Shown piece by piece: positions 13,100 through 53,651 of a stretch of 64,000 bases of DNA. The position numbers were made by a program, and so were the translations under genes. The DNA lies in NCBI RefSeq assembly GCF_054482525.1, contig NZ_CM137006.1, one strand, 5' to 3'. Under the pieces are notes generated by a model, which saw only the letters and a program-made list of their open reading frames with translations, was not told the DNA's origin and searched no databases. Numbering within the stretch: position 1 is the first letter of the stretch; each line of letters starts with the position of its first letter.

Positions 13100-13126
13100 A
13101 ACCCTCTGTTTTTACAGAGGGTTTTT
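13100..13126 (+). repeat. attL: left copy of the 27-bp imperfect direct repeat; also the guaA terminator hairpin
   Basis: AACCCTCTGTT-tt-TACAGAGGGTTTTT here matches AACCCTCTGTT-ac-TACAGAGGGTTTTT at 53625-53651. Each copy folds as a stem AACCCTCTG / CAGAGGGTT followed by a T-run. Confidence 0.8.
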
Positions 13127-13187
13127 GTTTTTATGTATTCATCTCTATTCACTCTACACCATATTTTTCGGCGGTACAGGTGACGGT

Positions 13188-13204
13188 ATTACCCTAAAGG
13201 TATA
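13188..13204. promoter_or_regulatory. Dyad site O1 (ATTACC-CTAAA-GGTATA), one mismatch
   Basis: Member of the TTACC-N5-GGTAA family, 42 nt upstream of the int start. Confidence 0.5.
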
Positions 13205-13245
13205 CTCTCATACCGTCATGAAAATGGTTTCTATACGGGTGAATT

Positions 13246-14496
13246 GTGCTTACCGATACAAAATTAAAAAACCTCAAGCCGCAGGACAAACTGTACAAGG
13301 TCTCCGATCGTGACGGGCTGTATGTAGCTGTGCTTACGTCAGGCACGGTCTCGTTTCGCTATGACTACCGTATCAACGGTCGTCGCGAAACACTGGTAAT
13401 CGGGCAGTATGGGCGTGACGGTATCAGCCTGGCAGAAGCGCGAGAAGAACTGATTGCTGCAAAGAAGCTGCTTAAAGCAGGCCAGTCGCCGGCTGCGGCT
13501 AAACGTGACGGTATCAAAAAGATTCGTGGTGCCGAGACGTTTGCGGTACATACCGACAGTTATATGAAACACGTCATCCTGGCTGACAGTACCCGCGCAA
13601 TGAAGCAGGCGGTGATTGACCGTGACATACTTCCGGTTCTTGGTAACAAAATGATGGCTGAAATTACCACATCGATGGTTCGTGATTTGTGTGACCGGAT
13701 TGTCGAACGCGGTGGTCGGGCAACAGCAGTACAGGCCAGGGAGATCATCAGCAGCGTATACCGTCACGCCAATGACCGTGGTCATGGTTTGTTTAATCCT
13801 GCGGCTGACATTAAACCTTCGTCTATCGCCATATTTAAACCACGAGAGCGAACACTGACACCAGAAGAAATTGGCCTGTTCTTCCGCACGCTGGATGCCA
13901 TTGGTGCTATGGGCACTATGAAAATGGCTTTAAAGCTGGTGCTTATCACTATGGTTCGTAAAGGCGAATTCACCAACGCAACGTGGGATGAAATAGATTT
14001 TAAAAAATGGACATGGACAATTCCTTCAGACCGCATGAAGGGAAGCCGGGCGCACGTTATTTACCTGCCTAAACAGGCTCAGGATATATTGGTCGGGTTG
14101 CAGATGTGCGCTGGTGGAAGTGAATATCTGGTTCCTGGTCGTTACAATTTCCGGAAGCCATTATCTAATGCCGCGCTGAACTCTCTGATCGACAGAACGG
14201 TGAAAATAATAAATGAAGATGGTGAGCATATTCAGGGCTTCACCGTACACGATATGCGCCGTACAGCCAGTACGTTGTTGCATGAGGCTGGTTATCCTTC
14301 AGACTGGATTGAAAAGGCTCTGGCACATGAGCAGAAAGGTGTGCGCGCCGTATATAACAAAGCGGAATACGCCAGACAGCGCGCCTACATGTTGCAGCAG
14401 TGGGCCGATATGATTGATTCCTGGATTAACGGGGAGCATACGGATCTGATTCCGTTCTCCCCGTCGAAGTTTGAGAAGTGGATGGCGGGGGAATAA
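13246..14496 (+). CDS. int: Tyrosine integrase (P4-type, DUF4102-like N-terminal arm-binding domain)
   Basis: 416 aa with a GTG start. The N-terminus reads LTDTKLKNLKPQDKLYKVSDRDGLYVAV, and catalytic residues appear in HDMRRTASTLL...LAHE...VRAVY. Confidence 0.9.
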   Translation: MLTDTKLKNLKPQDKLYKVSDRDGLYVAVLTSGTVSFRYDYRINGRRETLVIGQYGRDGISLAEAREELIAAKKLLKAGQSPAAAKRDGIKKIRGAETFAVHTDSYMKHVILADSTRAMKQAVIDRDILPVLGNKMMAEITTSMVRDLCDRIVERGGRATAVQAREIISSVYRHANDRGHGLFNPAADIKPSSIAIFKPRERTLTPEEIGLFFRTLDAIGAMGTMKMALKLVLITMVRKGEFTNATWDEIDFKKWTWTIPSDRMKGSRAHVIYLPKQAQDILVGLQMCAGGSEYLVPGRYNFRKPLSNAALNSLIDRTVKIINEDGEHIQGFTVHDMRRTASTLLHEAGYPSDWIEKALAHEQKGVRAVYNKAEYARQRAYMLQQWADMIDSWINGEHTDLIPFSPSKFEKWMAGE

Positions 14497-14499
14497 CGT

Positions 14500-14694
14500 T
14501 TAATAGTTCTGCTGATTTTCTTCCATCTCTGCTTCTGCTGCCAGTGATTCAATTTTGTTTTCGAATATTGCTGACAGTGTTGCAAATTCAGCATCAGTGA
14601 CAGCGGGAATTGGAACAAACCTGATCCCGCTGTGTGCAAGCATGTTTGCAGTTTCAAGGCATTTTCTTAAATCTGCTGGTGATGCCCTGTTCAT
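14500..14694 (-). CDS. Hypothetical 64-aa protein
   Basis: The start MNRASPADLRKCLE overlaps the stop of the methyltransferase gene in an ATGA junction. The longer ORF-track version would overlap the methyltransferase by 124 nt. Confidence 0.5.
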   Translation of the reverse strand: MNRASPADLRKCLETANMLAHSGIRFVPIPAVTDAEFATLSAIFENKIESLAAEAEMEENQQNY

Positions 14695-15742: not shown

Positions 15743-15991
15743 TCATGCAGCGTTGCTCACAGGACGATATACACGTTGCTGAACAGGAGGCTTTTTACCC
15801 TGGAACTCTGCCGGGCTTGCTGCCTGACGTTCATCAAGCCAACGCTCAACTTCATCACGGTTCCATGCGCAGCGTTTATCGGTGATATACCAGCGTTTAG
15901 GAAATTCCCCTGCGCGCTCCATACGGTCGATAGTGCTCCATGACAGTGGCACCACCGCCAGGAGTTCCTTCTTACCTAATGCACCTTTCAT
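15743..15991 (-). CDS. AlpA-family phage regulatory protein / excisionase-like
   Basis: 82 aa. LSWSTIDRMERAGEFPKRWYITDKRCAWNRDEVERWL is typical of AlpA/Xis winged-helix proteins. Confidence 0.7.
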   Translation of the reverse strand: MKGALGKKELLAVVPLSWSTIDRMERAGEFPKRWYITDKRCAWNRDEVERWLDERQAASPAEFQGKKPPVQQRVYRPVSNAA

Positions 15992-16040: not shown

Positions 16041-16922
16041 TTACATAGATGTTTCGTTTAATTCTTCCCGACGAACGCTGTAAACGTCGGTGGCTTTTGC
16101 CAGCAGTTCGTCATCATCTGAAAGTTTTTGTGCAATGTATTTGTAAGCCTTATCCAGTTCGGAGACAGTGCTGTAATTCATCGCTGCGCTGGTAAAGGCC
16201 ATCAGCATTTCTTCTGGCTCACGGCTATCCGCTTTACGCGTTTGCTCATCAGGCTTTTTCACTGATTTAGCGTTGATCAGACTGTTCATTCCCGCAGCCG
16301 TAGTCATTTGCGGAGTAATGTCTCGCTCAACGCGCGGTGCCGTTTCCTGTAATTCGTCAGGGGTGTAAACACCGAGAAGTACATCAGGAGCGTGCAGGCG
16401 AGCCCATCGTTTCGTGCAAAGATAGGCAAGTTGCTGGCGCGGATCCTGTTCCCACAATGGAGAGTTACGCACTCCTGCTTGCGCCATACTGATGGTAAGC
16501 TCACGTGGTTCTGCTTCTCCTTTAAGAACTGCTGACACAGTTACCGTCAGATTCGGTGATTTATCTGTTTTGCCGTTAACATTCGACCAGTCACCGCTCC
16601 AGCGATAATTCAGGCGTGTCGCCAGCAGGCTGGAAGAGGATACGACCGCGTTTACCAACTGTGCTTCGTAGCCTAACGTTCCGTTTACCACATGCGTTTT
16701 CTGCGCCACGGCGAAAGGGTTCATTCCCCACTGTGCCGCCTGCATGGTCACCGCCAGGCAATCGGCAGGTTTGCCTTCAAGATGTTTCGGTACAGTCGCT
16801 TTGCTTTGTGACATCAACTCCGCGAAACGCACCAGTTGATTCATGCCCTCGGGGCTGAAGATTGCCGCAGCAGTGCCTACAGTTGCGCCTGGTTGTGATG
16901 TGATTGCGATATCATTGCTCAT
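16041..16922 (-). CDS. RecT/Bet-family single-strand annealing recombinase
   Basis: 293 aa. It has QAAQWGMNPFAVAQKTHVVNGTLGYEAQLVNAV and is translationally coupled to the exonuclease gene. Confidence 0.6.
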   Translation of the reverse strand: MSNDIAITSQPGATVGTAAAIFSPEGMNQLVRFAELMSQSKATVPKHLEGKPADCLAVTMQAAQWGMNPFAVAQKTHVVNGTLGYEAQLVNAVVSSSSLLATRLNYRWSGDWSNVNGKTDKSPNLTVTVSAVLKGEAEPRELTISMAQAGVRNSPLWEQDPRQQLAYLCTKRWARLHAPDVLLGVYTPDELQETAPRVERDITPQMTTAAGMNSLINAKSVKKPDEQTRKADSREPEEMLMAFTSAAMNYSTVSELDKAYKYIAQKLSDDDELLAKATDVYSVRREELNETSM

Positions 16923-17740
16923 ACGTACATATCCTGTTTACGTGCCCAGTCAGGGCGTTTAATAATTTCCACTCCGCCCCATTCATCGTTGATGCGGCAT
17001 TCGTGATAGGTATTCAGATCCCGGCGGAACAGAGCGTGCCCGGCATCGACATCCGGCGCATCCAGCTCGAACACGCGTACCGGATACCGACCACAATCAA
17101 TGCTTTCGCTCACGGCAAGAAAGAAAAAACCATGTGGCTGACCAGTAACCCTCATTGCGCCTTCGCGGTACATTGCGTCCTGCACGTGGTAGCGGAACTC
17201 CTCGATGTGGCGTGCAAAACGGTCCATATCTGTAACCTTTTTCACGTCGACGATCACGTTGTGCTCTTTCAGCCATTTGTCTGGACGAATGCGGCACAAC
17301 TCACCAGTCTCTTCATCGTTCCAGTACATTGATGCTTCGCAGTAACCAGGTGCTTCCAGCATCCAGCGTGCCGCCGGGTGAGCCATTGCGCTATCACGCA
17401 TCAGCTCCAGTTTCCGCCACTGCTCGGCATCAAGTACCGTAATCCCCATATCCGCCACATCACGAAGAAATGCCTCTTCGTCAGCTTTACCTTGTTTCGT
17501 CCGACGATCGAATTTCGGCGAAACAATGAAGCGTTTGTCGAACTCTCCAGGCTCCAGAAGCAGACAGTGCAATGCGGTTCCCATATCCAGTGCAGACTTT
17601 TTCTCTTCGTCTTCTGGTGCTGCCTGAACCCATTTAAGAAGCGCCGGATTCTTGGCAACCATGTCCAGTTGCGACTTACTCACGCCGTCCCCGGCGTGGT
17701 AGTCTTCGTTGCTGATGTCGAAATAAATTCCCGGCTTCAT
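16919..17740 (-). CDS. PD-(D/E)XK exonuclease, RecE C-terminal (exonuclease VIII)-like
   Basis: 273 aa with GIYFDISNEDYHAGDGVSKSQL and DVKKV...EEFRYHVQDAMY motifs. Confidence 0.65.
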   Translation of the reverse strand: MKPGIYFDISNEDYHAGDGVSKSQLDMVAKNPALLKWVQAAPEDEEKKSALDMGTALHCLLLEPGEFDKRFIVSPKFDRRTKQGKADEEAFLRDVADMGITVLDAEQWRKLELMRDSAMAHPAARWMLEAPGYCEASMYWNDEETGELCRIRPDKWLKEHNVIVDVKKVTDMDRFARHIEEFRYHVQDAMYREGAMRVTGQPHGFFFLAVSESIDCGRYPVRVFELDAPDVDAGHALFRRDLNTYHECRINDEWGGVEIIKRPDWARKQDMYV

Positions 17741-18036: not shown

Positions 18037-18038
18037 TA

Positions 18039-18344: not shown

Positions 18345-18929
18345 TTATTGTTTGCTTTTTTCGTTCTGGTTGATGACAAATTCAATGTAACTTTCGATCT
18401 TTGCTTTCTCGGTTTCGGGTAACAATGCGTAGCGCGAGCGGTCATAGTTGATAGTCGCAGGGTCGTGCGGGTGAATCAGTAATTCATAGCCGTGACGCCC
18501 GAATGCGGATGCAACATTCTCCAGGGTGGAAATGGAAACGCTGACCTCATTGTTTAACAGGCGGCTGATTGTCACCTGGGCGACGCCGGATGCGCGGTGA
18601 AGTTTTCCCTGTGTTGAAAGGTCGCGGCTTTCGCTCATCCAGCGTTCCAGGTTGTGAGCCGCCAGCTGACCAATGTCGCTTGGGCCGACAGGCTGAAAAC
18701 CTTCCTGAGAAAGCGAGCGATCGATATCAAGCCAGTTACGGGGTTTATTGGCGGCAGCTTCAATTTTTCGCGCAACCTGGTCGCCGATAACCTTCTTACC
18801 AAGAGCCCAGCGGTTTACCAGATTTGCCTGAGTTCCAAGTTTTTCTGCCATCCGCGTCTGAACACCATTGAATTCACGGTCGATCAAGTCGTTGAGATTT
18901 TGCCTGCGGACGTCCTGGATACTTTTCAT
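18345..18929 (-). CDS. Prophage repressor with two XRE-type HTH domains and no S24 peptidase domain
   Basis: 194 aa. HTH 1 reads VQTRMAEKLGTQANLVNRWALGKK and HTH 2 reads LHRASGVAQVTISRLLNNEVSVSISTLENVASAF. It is divergent from a cro-like gene, and no Ala-Gly or Ser...Lys autocleavage module is seen. Confidence 0.7.
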   Translation of the reverse strand: MKSIQDVRRQNLNDLIDREFNGVQTRMAEKLGTQANLVNRWALGKKVIGDQVARKIEAAANKPRNWLDIDRSLSQEGFQPVGPSDIGQLAAHNLERWMSESRDLSTQGKLHRASGVAQVTISRLLNNEVSVSISTLENVASAFGRHGYELLIHPHDPATINYDRSRYALLPETEKAKIESYIEFVINQNEKSKQ

Positions 18930-19083: not shown

Positions 19084-19314
19084 ATGAGCGATAACGGACA
19101 TTTCGATTTCAAAAAGCACTGGCTTGCACTTACTCCGGATGAGCGTGAAGCCTTCGCACAGGAAGCCGGAACGACGAGTCACTATATACAGACTCACTTA
19201 ACAGGTAAGCGCAAAATGCCAGGTAAGGTATTGATGAATGGGCTTTTTAAAGCCTGTAAAACAAGACAATGGCTGCGCTCAAAAGCAGAACTGGCATACT
19301 TCTTCTACTCATGA
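19084..19314 (+). CDS. Cro/YdaS-like HTH protein
   Basis: 76 aa with an HTH (EAFAQEAGTTSHYIQTHLTGKR). It is the first rightward gene opposite the repressor. Confidence 0.55.
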   Translation: MSDNGHFDFKKHWLALTPDEREAFAQEAGTTSHYIQTHLTGKRKMPGKVLMNGLFKACKTRQWLRSKAELAYFFYS

Positions 19315-19462: not shown

Positions 19463-19675
19463 TTGAAGATAGTAACCAGAATGGAGGCCGCAAAAGCCGG
19501 GTTAAATCGCTATTTCACAGGAAAGCGGTGCCGTCACGGCCATCTCTCTGAAAGGTATGTTCTGAACGGAACATGTGTTGAATGTGCAATGAATAGCGCC
19601 AACCGCCATCGTAATGAATTTGCTTGTGCACTAAAGAGTGCAAGAGGGGAAACCTATGGCAAGCAGCTGGATTAA
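19463..19675 (+). CDS. Small zinc-ribbon protein (hypothetical)
   Basis: 70 aa with a TTG start preceded by AAGGGG. It contains GKRCRHGHLSERYVLNGTCVEC. Confidence 0.5.
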   Translation: MKIVTRMEAAKAGLNRYFTGKRCRHGHLSERYVLNGTCVECAMNSANRHRNEFACALKSARGETYGKQLD

Positions 19676-20486
19676 GGTTGAAGTTATCACTCCTGATAAA
19701 CCTGAAATTTTTCAGATAGCAGAAATTCTGGGTATTGATCCAGATGCTGTTCTTGGAAAGCTGGTTCGTATATGGGCATGGGCTGACCAGCAAACAATAG
19801 ACGGTAACGCTGGCAGCGTTACAAAAGGAGTACTTGATAGACTCGCTTTTATTACAGGATTTGCTGACGCCCTCATTAGCGTCGGATGGCTTGCTTATCA
19901 TGACGGCAAACTAATTCTTCCAAACTTTGAGCGACACAATGGAGAATCATCGAAAAAACGTGCACTTACGAATAGAAGAGTGGCAGAGCATCGAAAACGA
20001 GTAACGCAAAAAGTAACGCCAACAGCGTTACAAAAGGAGTTACCAGAGGAAGAGGAAGAGGAAGATATATATAAAACCCCACACATAGCGCACGTGCGCG
20101 AGGGTGCTCCGACCAGTGAAGCGAACAGTACGCCGTTGCAGGTGGCAGAACCTGAATTTCTGGATGGCCTGAGTGAACCCATCGGGAAATTTCCGATGAC
20201 AGATGGCTGGCTACCGTCGCCAGATTTTCGGCGGCGTGCTGCGCTGTGGGGAACGGCCCTGCCGGAACCGGAATTTACACCTGCTGAACTTGCTGCATTC
20301 CGGGATTACTGGATGGCTGAGGGCAAAGTGTTCACGCAGGTTCAGTGGGAACAAAAATTCGCCAGGCACGTAAATCATATCAGGGGAAAATCAAAAAATG
20401 CCGGGAAAAGCGATGAGCTTGACTGGAATAACACTGACTGGATAGAAGGGGTGTGGGATGAAATCAACTCCAGAACTTCTCAATGA
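19656..20486 (+). CDS. Replication initiation (O-like) protein with DnaT-like C-terminal domain
   Basis: It starts at MASSWIKVEV, has an acidic EEEEEED linker, and has the C-terminal DGWLPSPDF...ELAAFRDYWMAEGKVFTQVQWEQKF. It is followed by a lambda-P-like gene. Confidence 0.6.
   Translation: MASSWIKVEVITPDKPEIFQIAEILGIDPDAVLGKLVRIWAWADQQTIDGNAGSVTKGVLDRLAFITGFADALISVGWLAYHDGKLILPNFERHNGESSKKRALTNRRVAEHRKRVTQKVTPTALQKELPEEEEEEDIYKTPHIAHVREGAPTSEANSTPLQVAEPEFLDGLSEPIGKFPMTDGWLPSPDFRRRAALWGTALPEPEFTPAELAAFRDYWMAEGKVFTQVQWEQKFARHVNHIRGKSKNAGKSDELDWNNTDWIEGVWDEINSRTSQ
19804..19831. repeat. Iteron-like repeat 1: GTAACGC-TGGCA-GCGTTAC-AAAAGGAGT
   Basis: A 7-bp inverted repeat with a 5-nt spacer and a 9-nt tail, near-identical to 20013-20040 but read in a different codon phase. 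Confidence 0.55.
20013..20040. repeat. Iteron-like repeat 2: GTAACGC-CAACA-GCGTTAC-AAAAGGAGT
   Basis: Second copy, with an extra GTAACGC half-site at 20001-20007. It is followed by a polypurine tract, AT-rich GATATATATAAAA (20064-20076) and the palindrome GCGCACGTGCGC (20088-20099). Confidence 0.55.
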
Positions 20487-21234
20487 GTACGATCGCTTAC
20501 GTGAGCATGGTGTTGCTGTGCATGAAGAGCGGCGTGACAGCAATGGCAAAAAGGAGCAGGTTGCTAGAATTTTCAATGAACTATTTGTCCAGTTACAGGC
20601 TGCATTTCCTGCAAGCGTTTCGACCATAAGGGAGCAGAACAAACTTAATGAATTCCGTAAGCAATGGATGCTTGCGTTTCTGGAGAATGGGATCACTACA
20701 ATGGAACAGGTTAACGCTGGTATGCGCCACGCCCGCGCCAGTGAATCTCCGTTCTGGCCGTCGCCAGGGCAATTCATCAAGTGGTGCAAAGACAGCAAGA
20801 TGGTTCTTGGCGTCACCATTGACGATGTGATGGCGGAGTTTCACCGGTACAGCAAGGAAAAAAGTTTATATCCTGGTGGTCCCGAAAGATTCCCGTGGCG
20901 ACATCCGGTTATGTACTGGGTCGTATGTGATACCCGCCGTGCAATGTATCAGCGCCAGCTTAGCGAGATTGAGGTTGAGAAACACGCGCGCAGGCTGCTC
21001 GATGATTGGGCGAAAAAGGTGGCTTCCGGACAGCAGATACCCGATCCGGTGATCAGCATACAGGCAAAGCCAGAACCCATGAGTACGCCTCCTGACACTG
21101 GGAGAGACGTTTACCATCCACCAGGGCGAAGTTTCGGGTGCATGCCTAACGCCGCCACCCTGGGGGGAATAACACCGGCGCAGTGGCTGATAGAGGAATA
21201 CAGGCGGGGAAAGGCGGCAGGATTTATCAAGTAA
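20458..21234 (+). CDS. Lambda P-like replication protein (DnaB helicase loader)
   Basis: 258 aa. FPASVSTIREQNKLNEFRKQWMLAFLENGITTMEQVNAGMRHARASESPFWPSPGQFIKWC closely parallels the lambda P sequence as I recall it. Confidence 0.8.
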   Translation: MKSTPELLNEYDRLREHGVAVHEERRDSNGKKEQVARIFNELFVQLQAAFPASVSTIREQNKLNEFRKQWMLAFLENGITTMEQVNAGMRHARASESPFWPSPGQFIKWCKDSKMVLGVTIDDVMAEFHRYSKEKSLYPGGPERFPWRHPVMYWVVCDTRRAMYQRQLSEIEVEKHARRLLDDWAKKVASGQQIPDPVISIQAKPEPMSTPPDTGRDVYHPPGRSFGCMPNAATLGGITPAQWLIEEYRRGKAAGFIK

Positions 21235-25904: not shown

Positions 25905-25945
25905 GAGTAGATTATGCATGATGAATTTGACGGGTTTTGAATACT

Positions 25946-25971
25946 GCCGCCAACTATGGCGGCTTTATTTT
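25946..25971 (+). terminator. Intrinsic terminator ahead of terS
   Basis: GCCGCC-aactat-GGCGGC is followed by TTTATTTT. Confidence 0.75.
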
Positions 25972-25981
25972 GCATGGTACT

Positions 25982-25998
25982 ATTACCACAACGGTAAC
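25982..25998. promoter_or_regulatory. Dyad site O9 (ATTACC-ACAAC-GGTAAC)
   Basis: Perfect dyad between the terminator and terS. A degenerate repeat, ATTACCACGGTGGTTAT, follows at 26000-26016. Confidence 0.55.
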
Positions 25999-26014
25999 TA
26001 TTACCACGGTGGTT

Positions 26015-28794: not shown

Positions 28795-28871
28795 TGGCGC
28801 GGCATGCAGGATTCGAACCTGCGACCAACCGCTTAGAAGGCGGTTGCTCTGTCCAACTGAGCTAATGCCAC
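28795..28871 (-). tRNA. tRNA-Arg (anticodon UCU), 77 nt with encoded CCA
   Basis: Hand-folded cloverleaf: acceptor GTGGCAT/ATGCCGC, D arm GCTC-AGTTGGACA-GAGC, anticodon arm ACCGC-CTTCTAA-GCGGT, T arm GCAGG-TTCGAAT-CCTGC, discriminator G, then CCA. Confidence 0.85.
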
Positions 28872-42797: not shown

Positions 42798-42802
42798 ATT
42801 AA

Positions 42803-45277
42803 ATGAGACAGGAATGTATACAAGCGGTCCAGCAGGCGGCGCAGCGCACGTTAACGGCGCGAGAAATACAGAACATTGAAGACCGCATTTATCGAAATAT
42901 GCGCTCCATTGCTCGTGATGACCCGATGTCGTGGCGACAACTTTCCGAATCAGAACGGTTGTATCGTGCAGCACAATTGGCATCTGAAGAATTACAGCGA
43001 GAAGCGGCATTAAAGAAACGTCGTGTGGCCCTCACTATAGCCGCACGTCAGAGATTGGATAAATTTATCAATAGCTATCAAGGGGCTGATGGGAAACTTG
43101 GCGCTCTTAACCGTACTATTGCTTTTAATGCAGACGGTAAATCGAATTTCCTCTCTGTTGAATCCAGAACAAAAGCCACCCGTGATTATGCATTGAGTCA
43201 ATTGCAGGAGGCATTCGAAGCAGTTGATCCTCGCTTTTTTGGTCTGTTTGAAGATGAAGCGGGCGTACGTGACCTGATATATGAAATGCGGGGGCAAAAT
43301 ACTGGCAATGCTAAAGCAAGAAAAGGTGCTAAGGCGTGGAGAGAAGTTACAGAGCTGCTGCGCCGCCGGTTTAATGATGCTGGTGGGGACATTGGCTATC
43401 TCGAAAACTGGGGGATCCCTCAACATCATTCTATGGAAAAGGTTGGGGCGGTATCAAAAGATAAATGGGTTAGCGATGTTATAGGTAAGCTGGATCGCAA
43501 ATATTATACCCGAGCCGATGGACAACTGATGAACGATGCCGAGTTGTCTGCATTTCTTGGAGAGGCTTATAACACGATCGCTACTGGTGGGCTGAATAAG
43601 CTTACTGATACCGGAATGCGAATTTCCGGCGCACGTGCTAACCGTGGTAATGCATCACGACAGATACATTTCAAAGATGCAGATTCCTATCTGCAATATC
43701 AGCAACTTTATGGCGATCGCTCTCTATGGGAAATCATGGTCGGTCACCTGGAAGGTATCAGTAAAGATATTGCACTGGTGGAAACATATGGTCCAAACCC
43801 CGATCATGTTTTCCGCTCTCTTCTTGATCAGGTGAAGGCAGAAACGGCAACAGCTAACCCGAGTAAAACCGGTAAAGTCGAGCGGCTGGCGAACAACACA
43901 GAGAATCTGTACAACTTTATTTCCGGAAAGACACAGCCTGTAGCGAATCCGCACATCGCGCGATGGTCTGACAATATCCGCAACTGGCTGGTTGCCAGCA
44001 GACTCGGATCCGCGTTGCTGTCATCGTTCTCTGATCTTGGAACCATGTATCTGTCTGCGAAGGTTACCAACCTTCCAATGAACCAGTTATTCCGCAACCA
44101 GCTTGAAGCTATGGACCCAACGAACCGTACAGAACTTGCGCGGGCGCGCCGCGCTGGTCTGGCGATGGAATCTCTACTTGGCAGCGTTAACCGCTGGGCG
44201 ATGGATAATATGGGGCCGTCTGTGTCTCGTTGGGCTGCAACGGCGGTAATGCGTGCCAGTGGGCTTACAGCATGGTCAGATGCGCACAAGCGCGCCTATG
44301 GCGTAACCATGATGGGAAGCCTGGGAGAAGTAGTGTCACGGACACCAGACCTTCGTCGCCTCGATGACTCTGATTTTCGTATCCTGAAAAGCAAAGGGAT
44401 TACTGACACAGACTGGAGCGTATGGAAGTTGGCGCAACAGGAGGACTGGGGGAACGGTAATAATACGATGCTGACACCGGAAAGCATTATGCGTATCCCT
44501 GATTCAGCAGTTAAACATCTTGGTGAGCCTGAACGCGTGAAATTTGAGGCAATGCGTAAACTGCTCGGTGCCGTAACTGAAGAAGTTGATATGGCTGTTA
44601 TTACACCGGGAGCACGTGAGCAACTGATAACCGGTTCTGGTATTCAGCGTGGAACATGGAAAGGTGAATTAACGAGAAGTGTTTTCCTGTTTAAATCGTT
44701 CCCTATCTCGGTTGTTATGCGTCACTGGTCACGCGCTATGGGTATGCCGTCTGCTGGTGGGCGTGCGGCATATATTGCGACGTTTATTGCCAGTACGACC
44801 ATTCTTGGCGCTTTGTCGCAACAACTTAACGACCTTGCGTCTGGTCGTAATCCTCGAGAGATGACAGGAGAAGATGCTGCTAAATTTTGGCTTGGTGCTC
44901 TACTGAAAGGTGGTGGTCTTGGCCTTTACGGTGACTTTTTATTGTCAGATCACACTAGGTACGGGAGCGGCGCGCTGGCGTCGATGCTTGGCCCGGTAGC
45001 TGGTCTGGTTGATGACGTAGTGAAGATAGCTCAGGGCATACCGCTAAATGCTGTGGAAGGGAAGAGTGAGCAGACTGGTGGTGATCTGGTGAAGCTGGGG
45101 AAAGGTTTGATGCCAGGTGCGAATCTCTGGTACTTGAAGGCGGCTCTCGATCACATGATCTTTAATCAGATGCAGGAGTATTTTTCACCAGGCTATTTGC
45201 GTAAAATGGAGCAACGTTCGAAGAAAGAGTTTAACCAGACATACTGGTGGCGACCTCAGGATGTCACTCCGCAATAA
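42803..45277 (+). CDS. Large internal virion (ejection/core) protein
   Basis: 824 aa with C-terminal hydrophobic segments. Confidence 0.5.
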   Translation: MRQECIQAVQQAAQRTLTAREIQNIEDRIYRNMRSIARDDPMSWRQLSESERLYRAAQLASEELQREAALKKRRVALTIAARQRLDKFINSYQGADGKLGALNRTIAFNADGKSNFLSVESRTKATRDYALSQLQEAFEAVDPRFFGLFEDEAGVRDLIYEMRGQNTGNAKARKGAKAWREVTELLRRRFNDAGGDIGYLENWGIPQHHSMEKVGAVSKDKWVSDVIGKLDRKYYTRADGQLMNDAELSAFLGEAYNTIATGGLNKLTDTGMRISGARANRGNASRQIHFKDADSYLQYQQLYGDRSLWEIMVGHLEGISKDIALVETYGPNPDHVFRSLLDQVKAETATANPSKTGKVERLANNTENLYNFISGKTQPVANPHIARWSDNIRNWLVASRLGSALLSSFSDLGTMYLSAKVTNLPMNQLFRNQLEAMDPTNRTELARARRAGLAMESLLGSVNRWAMDNMGPSVSRWAATAVMRASGLTAWSDAHKRAYGVTMMGSLGEVVSRTPDLRRLDDSDFRILKSKGITDTDWSVWKLAQQEDWGNGNNTMLTPESIMRIPDSAVKHLGEPERVKFEAMRKLLGAVTEEVDMAVITPGAREQLITGSGIQRGTWKGELTRSVFLFKSFPISVVMRHWSRAMGMPSAGGRAAYIATFIASTTILGALSQQLNDLASGRNPREMTGEDAAKFWLGALLKGGGLGLYGDFLLSDHTRYGSGALASMLGPVAGLVDDVVKIAQGIPLNAVEGKSEQTGGDLVKLGKGLMPGANLWYLKAALDHMIFNQMQEYFSPGYLRKMEQRSKKEFNQTYWWRPQDVTPQ

Positions 45278-46902: not shown

Positions 46903-47598
46903 TCAGAAGAACCCTGCCTTGTCGTTGATGTACTCCGCGTGCGTCTGGATATCACGCAGGCATTTGCTCACACCGACGATGTAGCAGAACATGGTGGTCA
47001 GCTCCGCCGCCGCGCCCGATACGTCGTGCCCGTCGTCCTGTAACTGGTTCAGCAGATTCATCAGCAGTGAGTTCTCCGTCAGGCCGAGAACACCAGACGG
47101 CGAATGAATCAGGCTGCGGTAGCCGGGCTTCAGTGGGGCACTGTAGGTTTTGTTCTCTATCTTCATCGCCTGCATCACTGCTGATGCTGTGGCGTTGGCT
47201 ACCTGGTCGGCAACCATCTTTATGCGCTCTTCCTGCGGGAGCGAGTTTTTAATGTAACTTCCGGTGCGGCGGATCTGAGGAAGAACCTCACCTGTAACCC
47301 ATTTACGAAAGCGGTATGGGATAGTGCCTGGTGTCACTGCGTCGCGGCAGCGGAGGATCAGTGTGTAGAGGCCTGACTCGGAGATGATGATCGATTCTTG
47401 CTCACCGCCAGGGGTGTCGGTTGAAGCGACGCCCTTCTCATCATCATCAAGTTTTCGAACAGCATCTCGATGGTTTGCTATGCCTATAGCCCGACAAACA
47501 TCTGAAGCGATAAACCATGGCTCACCATTAATGACGATTACTCGTATATCGGCTTGGGATTCGAAAGAAAAAATGGACGTGCTTTTTGTAGCTGTCAT
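46903..47598 (-). CDS. Bro-N domain antirepressor-like protein
   Basis: 231 aa. The N-terminus FESQADIRVIVINGEPWFIASDVCRAIGIANHRDAVRKLDDDEKGV is a typical Bro-N domain. The C-terminal 70 aa are paralogous to the ORF at 47914-48186. Confidence 0.7.
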   Translation of the reverse strand: MTATKSTSIFSFESQADIRVIVINGEPWFIASDVCRAIGIANHRDAVRKLDDDEKGVASTDTPGGEQESIIISESGLYTLILRCRDAVTPGTIPYRFRKWVTGEVLPQIRRTGSYIKNSLPQEERIKMVADQVANATASAVMQAMKIENKTYSAPLKPGYRSLIHSPSGVLGLTENSLLMNLLNQLQDDGHDVSGAAAELTTMFCYIVGVSKCLRDIQTHAEYINDKAGFF

Positions 47599-47754
47599 AG
47601 TGGTTACCTTTTAGTCTGGTTAATCACCACTACCGACGCCAATCGGTTGGTGGTGAGCTGTGCAGGGTTGGCGTAACCGGCTAAAAGGACCCGGCGCACC
47701 TTTCGGTGCCCCCACACAGCCCACCATAATACGAATGTGGCCGTGCTATACGCA

Positions 47755-47776
47755 TAAAAAAACCGCTTGCGCGGTG
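47755..47776 (-). terminator. Intrinsic terminator inside the Ant leader
   Basis: On the minus strand, ACCGC-gcaa-GCGGT is followed by TTTTTTTT. Confidence 0.65.
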
Positions 47777-47875
47777 AATGCGCCTTTTAGTAATCCGGGA
47801 CGCCAATCCCGGCACTGGATTTTGCCAGTGCCCGATTACTATGGCACAAGAGGAGTGCGATGTAAATTTACCGCA
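47755..47875 (-). ncRNA. Predicted short leader transcript (about 120 nt) from the operator-overlapped promoter to the intrinsic terminator
   Basis: The promoter at 47882-47910 and the terminator at 47755-47776 are on the same strand. In between lie the hairpins GGCACTGG/CCAGTGCC (47811-47832) and CCGGGA-cgccaa-TCCCGG (47795-47812). Confidence 0.3.
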
Positions 47876-48367: not shown

Positions 48368-51142
48368 ATGACGGTCTCAACCGAAGTTGACCACAACGAA
48401 TACACAGGTAACGGCGTTACGACATCATTTCCGTATACCTTCCGCATTTTCAAAAAAACAGACCTGGTTGTTCAGGTGTCTGACCTGAACGGTAACGTAA
48501 CAGAATTGGTTCTGGATACCGGTTATACGGTAACTGGGGCGGGCACTTATAGTGGCGGTTCTGTTGTTCTTCCGTCGCCGCTTGCTGCTGGCTGGAAAAT
48601 CACGATAGAGCGTGTGCTTGATGTGGTGCAGGAGACTGATCTTCGCAATCAGGGAAAATTTTTCCCCGAAGTTCATGAGGATGCATTTGACTACCTGACG
48701 ATGCTGATCCAGCGATGTTTTGGGTGGTTCAGACGTGCATTGATGAAACCATCTTTGCTTGCAAAATATTACGATGCAAAGCAAAACAGAATTTCTAACC
48801 TTGCAGATCCATCACTTGAGCAGGATGCTGTAAATAATCGCTCAATGCGTAATTATGTCGATGCTGCAATCGCCGGGGTTGTTGGTGGTTTTGGTTGGTT
48901 TATTCAGTATGGTTTTGGGGCAGTATATCGAACGTTCCAGGATAAGATGCGGGATATCGTCAATGTTCGCGATTTTGGTGCAAAAGGGGATGGCATTACT
49001 GACGATACAGACGCAATAACAAATGCCATCATTTACTGCGCATCTAACGGAAAACGCCTGAAGTGGGATTCTGGTGTGTATTTGATTAGCCGCATAAAAT
49101 GCGGCGGGGATAATTATAACTATGACTGGGTAGCTGATGGCAAGGTTGTCTTAAAGTCAACCGCAAAAGAGCCTCTTGGTCCAAACTGGATTGATGATTA
49201 TTTCATAAGACTCGAAGGTGGAGATGCCACGCCAATTGACTATAATTCAACAATAAATCCTGGTGACACATCAATATCAATTAACTCAGCATATTCTGTT
49301 GATGCAGGCGATATAATTATGATTCATGGTAATCGCTTAATTCAGACAGATAATAGAGGACAGGCTTGTGAAGGTGAAATGCATGTTGTTACTGCTTTTG
49401 ATAATGCAACAAAAAAAGCGGAGATATCAGGTGCATTTTATTTTTTCTACTCTGCGAGCAATGATTACTCAACGACCGTAACAGCATCTGTATCCGGAGG
49501 TGAATTCTCATTTGGTAATGATGCAACATTAACAAAACAATACAATCAGGTAAAAGTAACAGGTGTCACCGGAGCTAACGCCGGAATATCAAGATACATA
49601 ACTCATTGGGATTACGACACTAAAACAGCAAAATTTGAATATGCTCAGGGACCATTCCCGTTTAAACCATCTGTTGGAGACGTGTTTAAAATCACAAGAA
49701 AGGCAAATATATATAAAAGAAAACCATGCTACGGCAGAATTGTCGGTGATTTCAATTTTGAAAGACCTGTCACGCAGAACGCATCTCCTGGTGATTTGGG
49801 GTTCCGTGGTCTTGTGATAGATGGCGCTGTTGATATGCATATAGAAGGAATAAAACTAATCGGCTTTTCAGAAACTGGAATTTTTCTTGAGTCATGCTAC
49901 AGAACGAAAATAATAGAGCCATATATTGAATACTCAAACCGTGCATATGATTTAACAAACGGCACTGGTTATGGTGTTGAAATATACAATAGCAGCTATT
50001 GCACAGTCGTGGATATGATAGCATTTGCTTGCAGGAGGGGGCTTGATGTAAGCGGGACTCAAATGGTATCACTGTATAATAACATTATAAATCCAACGAT
50101 GATGGGTGGTGGAACTGCATATGATGGAGTTAAATTTTTCCCTGATGGCGATACAAGAAATTCATGTTGCGGTGGACACGGCCCATCATACGAAACAACT
50201 TTTACAGGCGGCAATTCAGTCAATTTGTATTATGCTGGTGTAATACGCGGATTAAATGAAGTGTATGATGGAATGAACGCCAGGGGATTTAGCGGACCGG
50301 CTCCTTTTTTTGTAAGATATAGTGGTGGTGGGTTCACGATTCAGAACTGTAATTATATTGATGGTTTTACTGAGATGTCTTTGCCATACAACTTGAGGTA
50401 CAAACCTGTGAATGCAACTCAACGTAATCACAGACCTTTTGTTTTTATTGAAACAACTCTGGCACAGACAGACAGAAACTCTTACTATAAAGAACTTCCT
50501 GTTGTTATTAAGAATAATACCGCAAGGACTGTTCTCAAGGGCTTTTTACGTTTTGAGGTTAATGATGGCCTCACCCCTCTAATCCAAAATATTTATTTTG
50601 GTGGTAATTTATGCATGGCGAACCCAGAAACATCAGACTCTGTATCAGGGCAAACAGAGGCAGTAATGGTTTATTCATCAGTTCCTGGTGCAATAATTGT
50701 TCGAAATTTCCATGATCTTGGCGGTAACAGAATTGTTCCTGTTGGAGCAGGATACAGATACTGCGGTATGTTCAACACGCCAGATGGAATAGCAGGAACA
50801 ATAGTTCAACCAGACGGAAAATATCTAATAACACTTGAAGCCAACAAATCTACAAGTATCCTTGTTGGTGGATATGTCCCATGTGTTCGCCTTGATATGC
50901 ACGACATACTTGATATTCATGGGGTAATTGCAGTTGGTGTTCTTATTCATCGTGGTGAGGCAATTGATTTTTCTCCTTTAAAAGAAATTAATAAGCAAAA
51001 TGTTGTATTGAAAACCGGAGTTCTTTCAGATAATGATGGTGATGAAAATAACTTAAATATTTCGTTTGACTTTGCAACCATATATTTAAGCAACAAGATG
51101 CCAAATAAGATTCAACTATCTATTGAAGTATCAGGAGTGTAA
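48368..51142 (+). CDS. Tailspike: conserved N-terminal particle-binding domain plus pectate-lyase-like beta-helix receptor-binding/depolymerase body
   Basis: 924 aa. The N-terminus MTVSTEVDHNEYTGNGVTTSFPYTFRIF...ETDLRNQGKFFPEVHEDAFDYLTMLIQ is one I recall from epsilon15/phiV10-type tailspikes. It is followed by VNVRDFGAKGDGITDDTDAITNAI. Confidence 0.8.
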   Translation: MTVSTEVDHNEYTGNGVTTSFPYTFRIFKKTDLVVQVSDLNGNVTELVLDTGYTVTGAGTYSGGSVVLPSPLAAGWKITIERVLDVVQETDLRNQGKFFPEVHEDAFDYLTMLIQRCFGWFRRALMKPSLLAKYYDAKQNRISNLADPSLEQDAVNNRSMRNYVDAAIAGVVGGFGWFIQYGFGAVYRTFQDKMRDIVNVRDFGAKGDGITDDTDAITNAIIYCASNGKRLKWDSGVYLISRIKCGGDNYNYDWVADGKVVLKSTAKEPLGPNWIDDYFIRLEGGDATPIDYNSTINPGDTSISINSAYSVDAGDIIMIHGNRLIQTDNRGQACEGEMHVVTAFDNATKKAEISGAFYFFYSASNDYSTTVTASVSGGEFSFGNDATLTKQYNQVKVTGVTGANAGISRYITHWDYDTKTAKFEYAQGPFPFKPSVGDVFKITRKANIYKRKPCYGRIVGDFNFERPVTQNASPGDLGFRGLVIDGAVDMHIEGIKLIGFSETGIFLESCYRTKIIEPYIEYSNRAYDLTNGTGYGVEIYNSSYCTVVDMIAFACRRGLDVSGTQMVSLYNNIINPTMMGGGTAYDGVKFFPDGDTRNSCCGGHGPSYETTFTGGNSVNLYYAGVIRGLNEVYDGMNARGFSGPAPFFVRYSGGGFTIQNCNYIDGFTEMSLPYNLRYKPVNATQRNHRPFVFIETTLAQTDRNSYYKELPVVIKNNTARTVLKGFLRFEVNDGLTPLIQNIYFGGNLCMANPETSDSVSGQTEAVMVYSSVPGAIIVRNFHDLGGNRIVPVGAGYRYCGMFNTPDGIAGTIVQPDGKYLITLEANKSTSILVGGYVPCVRLDMHDILDIHGVIAVGVLIHRGEAIDFSPLKEINKQNVVLKTGVLSDNDGDENNLNISFDFATIYLSNKMPNKIQLSIEVSGV

Positions 51143-51178
51143 TTGTATCAATTTGCTAAATTAAAAAAGGATAAAAAT

Positions 51179-51463: not shown

Positions 51464-51467
51464 CCGC

Positions 51468-51492: not shown

Positions 51493-51674
51493 TTCAACCC
51501 GATCTCCATAGTTTGAATCATTTCTGTACTGTTGTTTCTTCAGTGTTATGTAAAAGGTGAGCCTTATTATCGGCATGAAAACAGGGGATTGACGATGTTG
51601 AAGTAACAAAAAACCATAAATGGTTTATCATGCATAATGCTTTACTGTTCAGGAGGTAGTTATGCATATAAACG

Positions 51675-52088
51675 GTGGAAAACATGTCAGCTCAACTAAC
51701 CAGTGAAACTTTAAATCAGTGGCTTAGCATGAGTTCTCTGGCGGCGGTGATAGCAGGAGTTCCTCCTGAGGTTGCTTTGGGGGCTTTGGCTGGAGCGGTA
51801 ATTTTTGTTACCTCTGCGGTAGAGTATCCCATTCGTCGTCGTGTACTCTTGTCGATGCTTAGCTTTCTCTGCGGCCTTCTTTTTTATAAACCAGCAGCAT
51901 CAATTCTTATCGGCATAGCCAGCATGATCCCTACTATCACGCAGGACTCTTTTGAAAAAGGGATTGTTTTCTCTGCTGGCGCATTCGTGTCAGCAATTGT
52001 TGCTGTGCGTATTGGTATATGGCTCTACCACCGTTCCGATAATCCACGCGAGTTAATTCCGGGGAGAAAAGACGATGGTAACGCATGA
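51675..52088 (+). CDS. Holin-like multi-TM protein
   Basis: 137 aa with 3-4 TM segments and a charged C-terminus. It is the first gene of the lysis cluster. Confidence 0.45.
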   Translation: MENMSAQLTSETLNQWLSMSSLAAVIAGVPPEVALGALAGAVIFVTSAVEYPIRRRVLLSMLSFLCGLLFYKPAASILIGIASMIPTITQDSFEKGIVFSAGAFVSAIVAVRIGIWLYHRSDNPRELIPGRKDDGNA

Positions 52089-52383
52089 GTTTTTTTTGCT
52101 TATCACCAATGCAGTTATTTGTACTGGCATAGCAATTCGTGTTGTCACATTCCGGCGTAACGGATCTCAACATCGAAGATGGGGGGGGTGGCTTGCTTAT
52201 TTCCTGATTGTTGCTGCGGCCAGTATTCCGGTTCGTGTTGCCTATGCAATCTGGTTCCGCACGCCAATGGCTGTGGATTTATCTGAGGTCATTATCAACG
52301 CTGTCATGCTCGCTGCGGTTATTAAAACGCGCGGTAACGTCGTTCAAATTTTCAAAGTATCGAGGTCTAAACATGGAGATTAA
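52075..52383 (+). CDS. Second holin/antiholin-like membrane protein
   Basis: 102 aa with 3 TM segments and a basic C-terminus. It overlaps both neighbouring genes. Confidence 0.45.
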
Positions 52384-53002
52384 ACAATTCCAGCGAGCTG
52401 CTGGTATTAGCGAGGCGCTGGCCGCACGCTGGTTCTCGCATATAACTTCTGCGATGAAAGAGTTTGGTATCAGCAAACCAGAAGATCAGGCAATGTTTAT
52501 TGCTCAGGTCGGGCATGAGTCTGGAGGTTTCACCCGGTTGCAGGAAAATTTCAACTACAGCGTCAGCGGACTGGCTAACTTTGTTCGGGCTGGGCGTCTC
52601 ACTCAGGGACAGGCCAACGCACTGGGTCGCCGTGCTGGTGAACCGCCATTACCACTCGAGCGCCAGCGTGCGATCGCAAATTTGGTGTACAGCAAACGCA
52701 TGGGGAACAATGCCCCCGGCGATGGCTGGAATTACCGGGGTCGCGGACTTATCCAGATTACCGGTTTGAATAACTATCGTGATTGCGGAAACGGCCTGAA
52801 AGTGGACCTGCTGGAGAATCCTGAACTGTTGGCGCAGGACGAATACGCGGCTCGTAGCGCGGCGTGGTTCTTCTCCAGCAAAGGCTGCATGAAGTATACC
52901 GGAGATATTGCACGTGTAACTCTGCTTATCAATGGTGGCCGGAACGGCATTGATGACCGGCGCGCGCGATACATCACTGCCAGTAAGGTGCTGGCGGTAT
53001 GA
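52373..53002 (+). CDS. Endolysin, glycoside hydrolase family 19 (chitinase-like)
   Basis: It starts at [23 protein letters not shown]...[16 protein letters not shown]...AARSAAWFF...INGG.NG motifs are present. Confidence 0.8.
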
Positions 53003-53496
53003 TCTGGGCATTCGCAAAAGCATACTGGAAACAGTTGGTTATCATGGCGATGCTTGCTGTTCTGGTCATATCAGGAGTTGTAGCCTGGAATGCACACGGT
53101 AGTCGTCAGTACGACGCCGGGTATGCACAGGCACAGGAAGATCAGAAACAGGCTGATGATAAGGCCAGGTCACAACGTGATCAGGAGAAAACACAAATTG
53201 AACGTGAAGCACAATCCCGTATCGATGTGGCGCGTGTTGATGCTGAGCATGCTAATGCCGCTGCTGACAGCCTGCGCGCCGAGCTTGACAAAACCAAGCG
53301 ACTCGCCGAACACTATACCGGATCTTTCCCCACTGGCACGTCAGCCAGCAAGGTCATCGGTGTGCTCGCCGACATGCTTGAAGAAAGCAACCGAGTTTAC
53401 AACGCAACAGCAGCTGAGGCTGAAAAGTATCGGATTGCAGGAGAATCCTGCGAACAGCAATACGATTCACTGAAGAAACAAAAATCGTGGCACTGA
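52999..53496 (+). CDS. i-spanin (Rz-like)
   Basis: 165 aa with an N-terminal TM segment and a coiled-coil periplasmic domain. It follows the endolysin gene. Confidence 0.7.
53225..53473 (+). CDS. o-spanin (Rz1-like lipoprotein) embedded in the +1 frame of the i-spanin gene
   Basis: [17 protein letters not shown] has the lipobox LTAC, and the mature part is Pro-rich. Only the distal part of ORF 53090-53473 is used. Confidence 0.6.
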   Translation: MWRVLMLSMLMPLLTACAPSLTKPSDSPNTIPDLSPLARQPARSSVCSPTCLKKATEFTTQQQLRLKSIGLQENPANSNTIH

Positions 53497-53624
53497 TTTC
53501 CGGTGACGGTATATAAAACGGTACGGCGAAAATCAGGTTGCAGAAAGTTGTTATCAGTCAATTGGTTATGTGTGTCGTAAATAATTGAGTGGGAATAATT
53601 TGACCCTGCACTATGAATGAACAA

Positions 53625-53651
53625 AACCCTCTGTTACTACAGAGGGTTTTT
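53625..53651 (+). repeat. attR: right copy of the 27-bp repeat; terminator-like hairpin
   Basis: AACCCTCTGTT-ac-TACAGAGGGTTTTT is followed by TATC. Confidence 0.8.

Follow-up and report, generated by a model that had tools for sequence, protein, structure and literature searches.

The 64,000-nt window analysed here (contig NZ_CM137006.1, assembly GCF_054482525.1) almost certainly carries, at 13039–53600, an intact temperate podovirus of the phiV10/epsilon15 type (Uetakevirus) integrated at the 3′ end of guaA. The crossover site is a 17-bp core, ATTGAGTGGGAAT(G/A)ATT, which runs from the fourth-last guaA codon through the stop codon and two bases beyond it; it is identified as such because the virion attP already holds core, spacer, hairpin and int in this order and because phage homology is bounded by 13039 and 53600. 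The terminator hairpins found at both ends are not a duplicated recombination site, since one is host DNA and the other a phage-carried look-alike. The phage family, the guaA attachment site, the core sequence and the arm motifs have all been described before, and the junction adds no new biology. The main value of the analysis is a correction: the longest terminal repeat should not define prophage boundaries. In this prophage, that repeat is the hairpin, which resembles the host terminator but is carried by the phage; recombination took place in a shorter repeat, the 17-mer that lies 45–61 bp upstream.

Identity and extent of the prophage

According to the initial annotation, the guaA–yfgI junction is interrupted by a complete prophage of epsilon15/phiV10 type, and nucleotide and protein matches bear this out. 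The span that it gave to the element, 13100–53651, is wrong: in nucleotide comparisons, homology to four circular or virion genomes begins at 13039 and stops at 53600. For annotation, the prophage comprises 13056–53600 (40,545 bp). The identical guaA/phage junction is present in 567 of 5,426 complete E. coli genomes (about 10%); in 4,563, the site is unoccupied and holds a single core and a single AC-loop hairpin.

Attachment core and strand exchange

11476..13053, + strand: guaA (GMP synthase); ORF list, RefSeq annotation of homologous loci, translation
13039..13055, + strand: attL core ATTGAGTGGGAATGATT, with stop codon TGA; attP/attB alignment, start of homology at 13039, PMC9782041
53584..53600, + strand: attR core ATTGAGTGGGAATAATT; attP/attB junction alignment, end of homology at 53600
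53691..54230, − strand: yfgI (DUF5384), convergent with guaA; ORF list, RefSeq annotation of homologous loci

The 17-mer is common to attL, attR, the attP of phiV10 and ZX5 and the empty attB, and the phage and host flanks switch exactly there. In the virion attP of phiV10 and ZX5, the lysis genes, the P arm, the 17-mer, a 44-nt spacer, a hairpin with a TT loop and int are contiguous. attL consists of guaA, the 17-mer and the phage spacer and TT-loop hairpin; attR consists of the phage P arm, the 17-mer, the native 24-nt spacer and a hairpin with an AC loop, this spacer and hairpin matching the empty sites exactly. This architecture is repeated in four other lysogens. The published attachment core, attP = attB = attgagtgggaatgatt at the guaA 3′ end, was verified for ZX5 by PCR and Sanger sequencing, the excision junctions (attP and attB) being shown by junction PCR, and the same core is stated as proven for phiV10 and epsilon15 (PMC9782041); the integration of these two phages at guaA, which the initial annotation mentioned, agrees with it.

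The attL and attR cores differ in a single G/A position, so that the guaA stop codon is TGA at attL and TAA at attR. In this window alone, the difference would narrow the crossover to the first 13 core bases; the window is the only informative case, as the four other lysogens have G at both ends. The guaA coding sequence is unaltered by integration (it ends IEW E stop), and its 3′ flank is replaced.

Integration was by the element's P4-type tyrosine integrase, through exchange between phage attP and bacterial attB within the 17-bp common core. As guaA's own terminator is 3′ of the core, integration has displaced it by 40.5 kb, to attR. The phage P′ arm, which adjoins the core, carries a substitute guaA 3′ flank (the 44-nt spacer and hairpin), now behind guaA at attL.

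Two terminators and the phage-borne guaA 3′ flank

13056..13099, + strand: phage-borne 44-nt spacer, proximal P′ arm; attP of phiV10, ZX5, HEMP4, epsilon15 and Tyrion
13100..13126, + strand: phage-borne rho-independent terminator hairpin, TT loop; folding, terminator annotation in phiV10 and epsilon15
53601..53651, + strand: guaA 3′ flank native to E. coli, consisting of a 24-nt spacer and a bidirectional terminator hairpin (AC loop, 53625–53651); identical to uninterrupted loci

The pattern AACCCTCTGTT-NN-TACAGAGGGTTTTT occurs exactly twice, at 13100–13126 (loop TT) and 53625–53651 (loop AC), with 0 occurrences expected from 100 shuffles. The two 27-nt copies with different loops had been recognised in the initial annotation, and both fold as terminator-type hairpins; the right-end copy had, however, been assigned to the phage, and 53625–53651 is the native guaA/yfgI terminator. 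The one hairpin anticipated at uninterrupted guaA–yfgI loci was found there, with the AC loop. The phage-borne hairpin matches the native terminator at 25 of 27 positions. In the variants of epsilon15 (ACAGGGGG, with one G–U pair, unlike the hairpin of the element) and Tyrion (ACGGAGGG), pairing is preserved only via G–U, which is consistent with a hairpin formed in + strand RNA. Judging from sequence, the phage-borne hairpin probably ends guaBA transcripts and would block read-through into int, and the native hairpin at attR would continue to terminate yfgI, as well as any transcription leaving the phage lysis genes. A scan for a sigma-70-like int promoter between the hairpin and int found none.

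Phage 21 and e14, which integrate into icd, and P4-type elements, which integrate into the 3′ ends of tRNA genes, supply a substitute 3′ end, so that the target gene remains intact. In contrast to these elements, only four codons and the stop codon are duplicated here, what is replaced is mainly the untranslated 3′ flank with its terminator, and the substitute hairpin is almost identical to that of the host.

It is possible, if rather unlikely, that the spacer and hairpin are a regulatory 3′-UTR cassette, in which an RNase III-type stem formed with the last guaA codons alters guaA mRNA stability or int expression in the lysogen. The 3′ part of the spacer, as RNA, is predicted to pair with these codons in a strong 14-bp stem that encloses a small inner hairpin (z = −6.4); the stretch equivalent to 13056–13099 is labelled ‘RNaseIII’ in the epsilon15 RefSeq record, and the distance from core to hairpin stays at about 44–45 nt across unrelated spacer classes. 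In the 13 related sequences compared, one-sided changes preserve pairing in the core/spacer stem. None of these sequences shows a compensatory double change, however, and the 5′ strand of the stem is already constrained as coding sequence and att core. ZX5 lysogeny, moreover, had no effect on growth or other tested phenotypes (PMC9782041). Similar spacers 3′ of guaA, with no integrase gene, also occur in two Citrobacter species, so the phage spacer may simply be an inherited host 3′ flank.

To trace the origin of the phage-borne flank, genome contigs were scanned with the hairpin as the pattern, which gave 43 loci (Salmonella enterica subsp. enterica was outside its scope). The hairpin is found natively 3′ of guaA in Klebsiella, Raoultella, Citrobacter, Buttiauxella and Serratia. 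In Citrobacter sp. NCU1 and Awk 4, a phage-like spacer lies 3′ of guaA without an integrase or a P′-arm remnant, and, among the flanks compared, that of two Citrobacter species is closest to the phage segment of about 71 nt. These sequences suggest that the phage-borne flank may be of host origin. That the segment is a captured enterobacterial guaA 3′ UTR acting as a cassette, which rewires the 3′-end processing or stability of guaA mRNA or insulates or regulates int, is unlikely; if true, such a cassette would operate in about 10% of E. coli strains.

Integrase, arm-type sites and excisionase

13180..13189, + strand: putative P′ arm-type Int site GTGACGGTAT, 66 nt before the int start; integrase-binding annotation in epsilon15
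13210..13219, − strand: inverted near-copy of the arm motif, ATGACGGTAT, 36 nt before the int start
13246..14496, + strand: tyrosine integrase, P4 type (Arm-DNA-bind_3, central and catalytic domains); Pfam, 88% identity to epsilon15 Int
15743..15991, − strand: AlpA-family protein, probable excisionase/regulator; Pfam PF05930, epsilon15 gp33 homologue annotated as excisionase
53503..53512, + strand: putative P arm-type Int site GTGACGGTAT, 288 nt before the int start in attP coordinates; epsilon15 annotation

The integrase gene starts 190 nt past the core and its product contains the domains PF13356, PF22022 and PF00589. Its position at the left end, with conserved putative arm-type motifs in both arms, is as the initial annotation had it. 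The 11-mer GGTGACGGTAT occurs exactly twice (0 expected), once in each phage arm as first reported, but the second copy lies at 53502–53512 rather than 53512–53522, and the 10-mer GTGACGGTAT within it also occurs elsewhere. Exact 10-mers are located at 13180, 13415, 13505, 13758 (− strand) and 53503, those at 13415, 13505 and 13758 within int, and the inverted copy at 13210 has one mismatch. With at most one mismatch allowed, there are 13 matches against 2.8 expected, and all five exact copies are at the att/int ends. Eight relatives, down to an Int of 71% identity, keep the motif at −288, −66, −36, +169 and +259 from the int start; the epsilon15 RefSeq record gives it as an integrase-binding site. 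The GTGACGGTAT sites in both arms would position Int, and the AlpA-family protein may serve excision.

Gene content and integrity

16041..17740, − strand: RecT annealase and PD-(D/E)XK exonuclease, recombination module; Pfam
18345..18929, − strand: HTH repressor; Pfam HTH_3, phiV10 and ZX5 annotation
19084..19314, + strand: small divergent early gene in the cro position, without a Pfam family; ORF list, phiV10 annotation, Pfam
19638..21234, + strand: replication genes (DnaT-like initiator, lambda P-like protein); Pfam
25937..28083, + strand: terminase, small and large subunits; Pfam Terminase_2, phiV10 annotation
28795..28871, − strand: phage tRNA-Arg (UCU); ARAGORN, Rfam
29520..31199, + strand: portal, podovirus head-to-tail connector; PF12236 Head-tail_con (E = 1.6e-187), 81% identity to epsilon15 gp4
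32199..33191, + strand: major capsid protein, epsilon15 gp7 family; PF20911 GP7 (E = 2e-149), 43% identity to epsilon15 gp7
34397..37476, + strand: tail tubular A-like and B-like proteins, homologues of epsilon15 gp11 and gp12; synteny, annotation
37476..45277, + strand: internal virion/ejection proteins of 154, 181 (T7 gp14 family), 837, 600 and 824 aa; Pfam T7_gp14, annotation
46903..47831, − strand: Bro-N antirepressor gene, preceded by C4 antisense RNA (47646–47731) and isrK RNA (47756–47831); Pfam, Rfam
48368..51142, + strand: tailspike; N-terminal ~165–203 aa common to the epsilon15/phiV10 group, receptor-binding part different
51675..53496, + strand: lysis cassette (membrane protein, holin, GH19 endolysin, Rz-like spanin); Pfam, annotation

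The gene order had been read correctly as int, recombination arm, repressor/cro, O/P, terS/terL, structural genes, tailspike and lysis genes. Many gut prophages are reportedly inactive, as a preprint's title has it, and the element could be a fixed, cryptic prophage that is no longer inducible and merely looks complete. This is very unlikely: all gene lengths equal those in the viable phages phiV10 and ZX5, the attL and attR cores and the arm sites are intact, and the genes for Int, the AlpA-like protein, the repressor, the terminase, the portal, the capsid and lysis are all uninterrupted; the close relative ZX5 was induced spontaneously, at 10^7 PFU/mL (PMC9782041).

The hairpin as a false boundary

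The initial annotation had the phage inserted exactly in the guaA terminator hairpin. There was no such insertion, since the left hairpin copy is phage DNA, guaA's replacement terminator; it and 13056–13099 are contiguous in the attP of phiV10 and ZX5, and strand exchange took place 45–61 bp upstream, in the 17-bp core overlapping the guaA stop codon. Insertion in the hairpin would leave host DNA up to the attL hairpin and phage DNA up to the attR hairpin; comparison with virion attP and empty sites identified 13056–13099 as phage and 53601–53624 as host. A model in which attP and attB share the 27-nt hairpin and exchange inside it regenerates a hairpin at both junctions can be given virtually no credence. 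In its favour, no other near-identical direct repeat at the ends is as long as the hairpins, which agree in exact blocks of 14 and 11 nt, and empty sites have one hairpin. But the model predicts bacterial DNA to the left of the left hairpin; the sequence there, 13056–13099, matches no empty E. coli site and is the same, or nearly so, as in the attP of phiV10, ZX5, HEMP4, epsilon15 and Tyrion. By contrast, the right hairpin is preceded by the native bacterial spacer, 53601–53624, virion-genome homology ending at 53600. The published core is the 17-mer (PMC9782041). As a crossover site, the hairpin is thus refuted by the order of the virion attP, the homology bounds, the empty sites and the four other lysogens. 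The 17-mer direct repeat that marks the recombination site was absent from the list in the initial annotation.

Relationship to other phages and islands

The Escherichia phages HEMP4, ZX5, TL-2011b, phiv142-3 and phiV10, which belong to Uetakevirus or are close to it, have 95–99% nucleotide identity to the element over about 45–87% of each of its halves. The two halves are covered to 75% and 82% by phiv142-3 (identity 97.8% and 96.6%), to 84% and 60% by ZX5 (98.1% and 97.2%) and to 43% and 75% by phiV10 (about 95.7%). The five phages share with the element the gene order, the 17-bp core, the P′ spacer, the TT-loop terminator and the arm motifs. Compared with these relatives, the element is mosaic in the accessory early genes at 22.1–25.0 kb and has a moron at 28174–28596 and a YafO-like gene at 46056–46628; an O-acetyltransferase gene 3′ of the tailspike gene is present in phiV10 and TL-2011b and absent here. 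The tailspike N-terminus is 93–95% identical to those of ZX5, phiv142-3 and EC.W1-9 over 203 aa; over 165 aa, its identity is 71% to epsilon15 gp20 and 68% to phiV10 gp25, confirming that it is shared with these phages, as had been proposed. The region of the receptor-binding domain, 49030–51181, has no counterpart in any phage record searched.

Statements on the Salmonella phage epsilon15 rest on its RefSeq features and PMC9782041. Identity to the element is 88% for Int, 81% for the portal, 43% for the capsid protein and 71% for the first 165 aa of the tailspike, the last three being comparisons that the initial annotation had proposed. Likewise, epsilon15 has the att core, GTGACGGTAT sites in both arms and inside int, and a terminator stem-loop between the core and int. 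It differs in host and tailspike specificity and in its O-antigen conversion genes gp21, gp22 and gp28, which are absent in the element.

Elsewhere in Enterobacterales, islands at the guaA 3′ end were found in Pseudocitrobacter, Klebsiella pneumoniae ATCC 13883, Citrobacter werkmanii, Buttiauxella warmboldiae and Winslowiella arboricola. All five have, in this order, guaA, the core, a spacer, the same hairpin and an Int homologue (71–91% identity) with the same arm-motif positions; their spacer classes differ from that of the element. In the Buttiauxella and Winslowiella islands, the entire block of core, spacer and hairpin, about 86 nt long, is repeated at both ends.

Insertion site and recombination core

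The prophage, a phiV10/epsilon15-type (Uetakevirus) element, lies between guaA and yfgI. An artificial empty site joined from both flanks was searched against 5,426 complete E. coli genomes, and an uninterrupted guaA–yfgI locus was matched in 4,563 of them. Each of the four empty loci that were fetched carries, as the initial annotation had expected, one hairpin copy, with an AC loop, 24–26 nt 3′ of the guaA stop codon. In the virion-derived genomes of phiV10 and ZX5, attP is ordered ...CGTAAATA – ATTGAGTGGGAATGATT – 44-nt spacer – AACCCTCTGTTTTTACAGAGGGTTTTT – GTTTTTATG... int. At the left junction (attL) of the window, guaA is followed by a 17-mer and then by the same spacer and TT-loop hairpin as in the phiV10/ZX5 attP; at the right junction (attR), the phage P arm, on the side of the lysis genes, is followed by the 17-mer and then by the host's own 24-nt spacer and its hairpin with AC loop, matching the empty sites base for base. 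In local BLAST against four circular or virion genomes, homology starts at 13039 and stops at 53600, and an identical junction layout was found in four further lysogens. The comparison of attP, attL and attR, the homology limits and the four lysogens together establish the 17-mer as the recombination core; it spans the end of the guaA reading frame, with four codons (I-E-W-E) and the stop, plus two further bases.

Features of the insertion region, as read from the sequence
11476–13053, plus strand: guaA
13039–13055: recombination core, left copy
13056–53600: prophage proper, 40,545 bp
13100–13126: hairpin with TT loop
13246–14496, plus strand: int
53584–53600: recombination core, right copy
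53625–53651: hairpin with AC loop
53691–54230, minus strand: yfgI

The initial annotation had placed the phage exactly in the guaA terminator hairpin, rebuilt at both ends; judged by the attP of phiV10/ZX5 and the homology limits, this is wrong by 45–61 bp. Core position 14 is G in attL (TGA stop) and A in attR (TAA stop). G occupies this position in all attP sequences examined, and A in the empty strain SCU-102, which has the same guaA 3′ allele as the window. Given an A in the original host allele, the two points of exchange would lie left of position 14, within ATTGAGTGGGAAT; this narrowing comes from one informative case, the four other lysogens having G at both ends.

According to the ZX5 study, attP = attB = attgagtgggaatgatt, at the 3′ end of guaA; attB, attL and attR were verified by PCR and Sanger sequencing, and the same att sequence is stated to be proven for phiV10 and epsilon15 (PMC9782041). 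TL-2011b is likewise reported within guaA (PMC3293862). The guaA–attL–int junction is present in 567 of the 5,426 complete E. coli genomes (at least 80% query coverage). This is a known prophage type at a known site, correctly recognised at the outset with a wrong junction model.

Terminator hairpins

The window contains exactly two copies of the pattern AACCCTCTGTT-NN-TACAGAGGGTTTTT (chance expectation 0), one at each junction and with differing loops, as first noticed; a strong hairpin fold with a 3′ T run is predicted for both copies. The left hairpin and the preceding 44 nt are phage DNA and the right hairpin is the native terminator, the apparent target duplication being a look-alike hairpin carried by the phage. 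Since recombination at the stop codon would part guaA from its own terminator, the phage would have to bring a replacement. This hairpin would also shield int: in the lysogen against guaBA read-through, in the free phage against read-through of the late operon. In the epsilon15 and Tyrion variants pairing is retained only via G-U, as expected of a hairpin in RNA transcribed from the plus strand.

A scan of genome contigs with the hairpin as pattern yielded 43 loci. About 25 Enterobacterales species carry the stem CCCTCTGT/ACAGAGGG 3′ of guaA, in most cases with a TT loop. In several of these (examples are Klebsiella, Raoultella, Citrobacter sp. FP75, Buttiauxella sp. B2 and Serratia) integrase is absent downstream and ordinary chromosomal genes, e.g. 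pdeF-like or cytochrome, are found there, so the hairpin is an old native guaA terminator. Citrobacter sp. NCU1 and Awk 4 have the phage-type spacer 3′ of guaA, with no integrase or P′-arm remains. Core, spacer and hairpin, about 86 nt, are identical at both ends (attL/attR) of the guaA-linked islands in Buttiauxella warmboldiae (L029/L041) and Winslowiella arboricola (L022/L036). Most simply, the proximal part of the phage P′ arm, on the int side, would be a guaA 3′ flank of host origin. Across unrelated spacer classes, the core-to-hairpin distance is constant at about 44–45 nt.

An identical 26-nt hairpin was also met in unrelated phyla, namely Desulfobacterales/Thermodesulfobacteriota (loci L024, L026, L035) and Chitinophagaceae, Lacibacter (L015, L027, L028), three times immediately 3′ of a tRNA gene; convergent evolution of terminators is the presumed explanation. 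IS200C lies directly 3′ of the native attR hairpin in the E. coli lysogens WP8-S17-ESBL-12, PKF11 and TUM10828 (L056 39864–39990, L057, L058) and also in one otherwise empty guaA–yfgI site (H61); the native hairpin may therefore be an IS200 target.

In the predicted fold of the attL transcript, the last guaA codons pair with the 3′ portion of the phage spacer in a further stem of 14 bp (z = −6.4); at the same place the flank native to E. coli gives no more than a weak stem of 5 bp. The corresponding region is labelled ‘RNaseIII’ in the epsilon15 RefSeq record. Among 13 related sequences, the pairs are maintained solely through one-sided changes, with no compensatory pairs. A regulatory role of this predicted stem is possible; no phenotype of lysogeny was observed in the ZX5 study (PMC9782041).

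Integrase arm-type sites

The 11-mer GGTGACGGTAT, proposed initially as an arm-type motif, has exactly two copies in the window, 13179–13189 and 53502–53512; the left copy had been placed correctly and the right one 10 positions off. The motif is real and already annotated: in the epsilon15 RefSeq record, GTGACGGTAT is labelled as integrase-binding in each of the arms and at two places within int. Binding here is putative. Exact copies of GTGACGGTAT in the window, at 13180, 13415, 13505, 13758 (minus strand) and 53503, are confined to the att/int ends; an inverted copy with one mismatch lies at 13210, and at most one mismatch gives 13 matches against 2.8 expected. Three exact copies lie inside the int ORF:

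13415–13424, plus strand
13505–13514, plus strand
13758–13767, minus strand

Both plus-strand copies code for an (R/C)DGI peptide, and their position is conserved in all relatives examined. Relative to the int start, GTGACGGTAT is found at −288, −66, −36, +169 and +259, as in epsilon15, phiV10 and Tyrion and in guaA-linked islands of Pseudocitrobacter, Klebsiella, Citrobacter and Buttiauxella, the integrases of which are 71–91% identical. These conserved positions are a good phylogenetic footprint of putative Int sites. The sites immediately upstream of int suggest autoregulation, by analogy with P4.

Identity of the prophage

The two prophage halves were compared by megablast with 50,697 phage records; the matches are Uetakevirus or close relatives.

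Megablast matches of the prophage halves (coverage / identity)
HEMP4: first half 85% / 99.6%; second half 82% / 98.6%
TL-2011b: first half 87% / 96.9%; second half 48% / 96.5%
vB_EcoP_ZX5: first half 84% / 98.1%; second half 60% / 97.2%
phiv142-3: first half 75% / 97.8%; second half 82% / 96.6%
phiV10: first half 43% / 95.5%; second half 75% / 95.9%

Protein identity to epsilon15 is 88% for integrase, 81% for portal, 43% for major capsid protein and 71% for tailspike residues 1–165. The epsilon15/phiV10 assignment and the gene order in the initial annotation are correct. The Pfam families include a P4-type integrase with arm-binding domain, an AlpA-family protein, RecT, a PD-(D/E)XK exonuclease and an HTH repressor; DnaT-like and lambda-P-like replication proteins; a small terminase, a podovirus connector, an epsilon15 gp7-type capsid protein and a T7 gp14-family core protein; and a GH19 endolysin with an Rz-like protein. 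In length the genes match those of phiV10 and ZX5, both viable phages, and the prophage appears intact.

Features particular to this copy and other observations

The distinguishing features of this prophage are ordinary mosaicism: early genes are variable, the O-acetyltransferase gene 3′ of the tailspike is absent, and the tailspike receptor-binding domain and a YafO-like gene set it apart. These last two are listed here with other features of the prophage.

28174–28596, minus strand: variable 140-aa ORF of no Pfam family, adjoining the tRNA gene
28795–28871, minus strand: phage tRNA-Arg (UCU), between large terminase and portal, opposite to the structural genes
46056–46628, minus strand: 190-aa YafO-like ORF, the YafO-toxin match being below threshold (23.2 bits, cutoff 25)
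46903–47598, minus strand: Bro-N antirepressor gene
47646–47831, minus strand: C4 antisense RNA (79 bits) and isrK RNA (78 bits), Rfam
48368–51142: tailspike; receptor-binding part (49030–51181), a pectate-lyase-like beta-helix

The tailspike receptor-binding domain has no counterpart among the 50,697 phage records; it is present in nine complete E. coli genomes, in two of which it is fused to a P22-type head-binding domain, indicating module exchange between podovirus lineages. The 46056–46628 ORF may be a toxin–antitoxin moron; its homologue in TL-2011b bears the annotation YafO family toxin, and phiV10 lacks it. With the C4 and isrK RNAs directly upstream, the Bro-N locus is a P1/P7-type antirepressor module under antisense control. 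In the host flank, sroE sRNA (3326–3417, plus strand, 117 bits) is consistent with an Escherichia chromosomal context.
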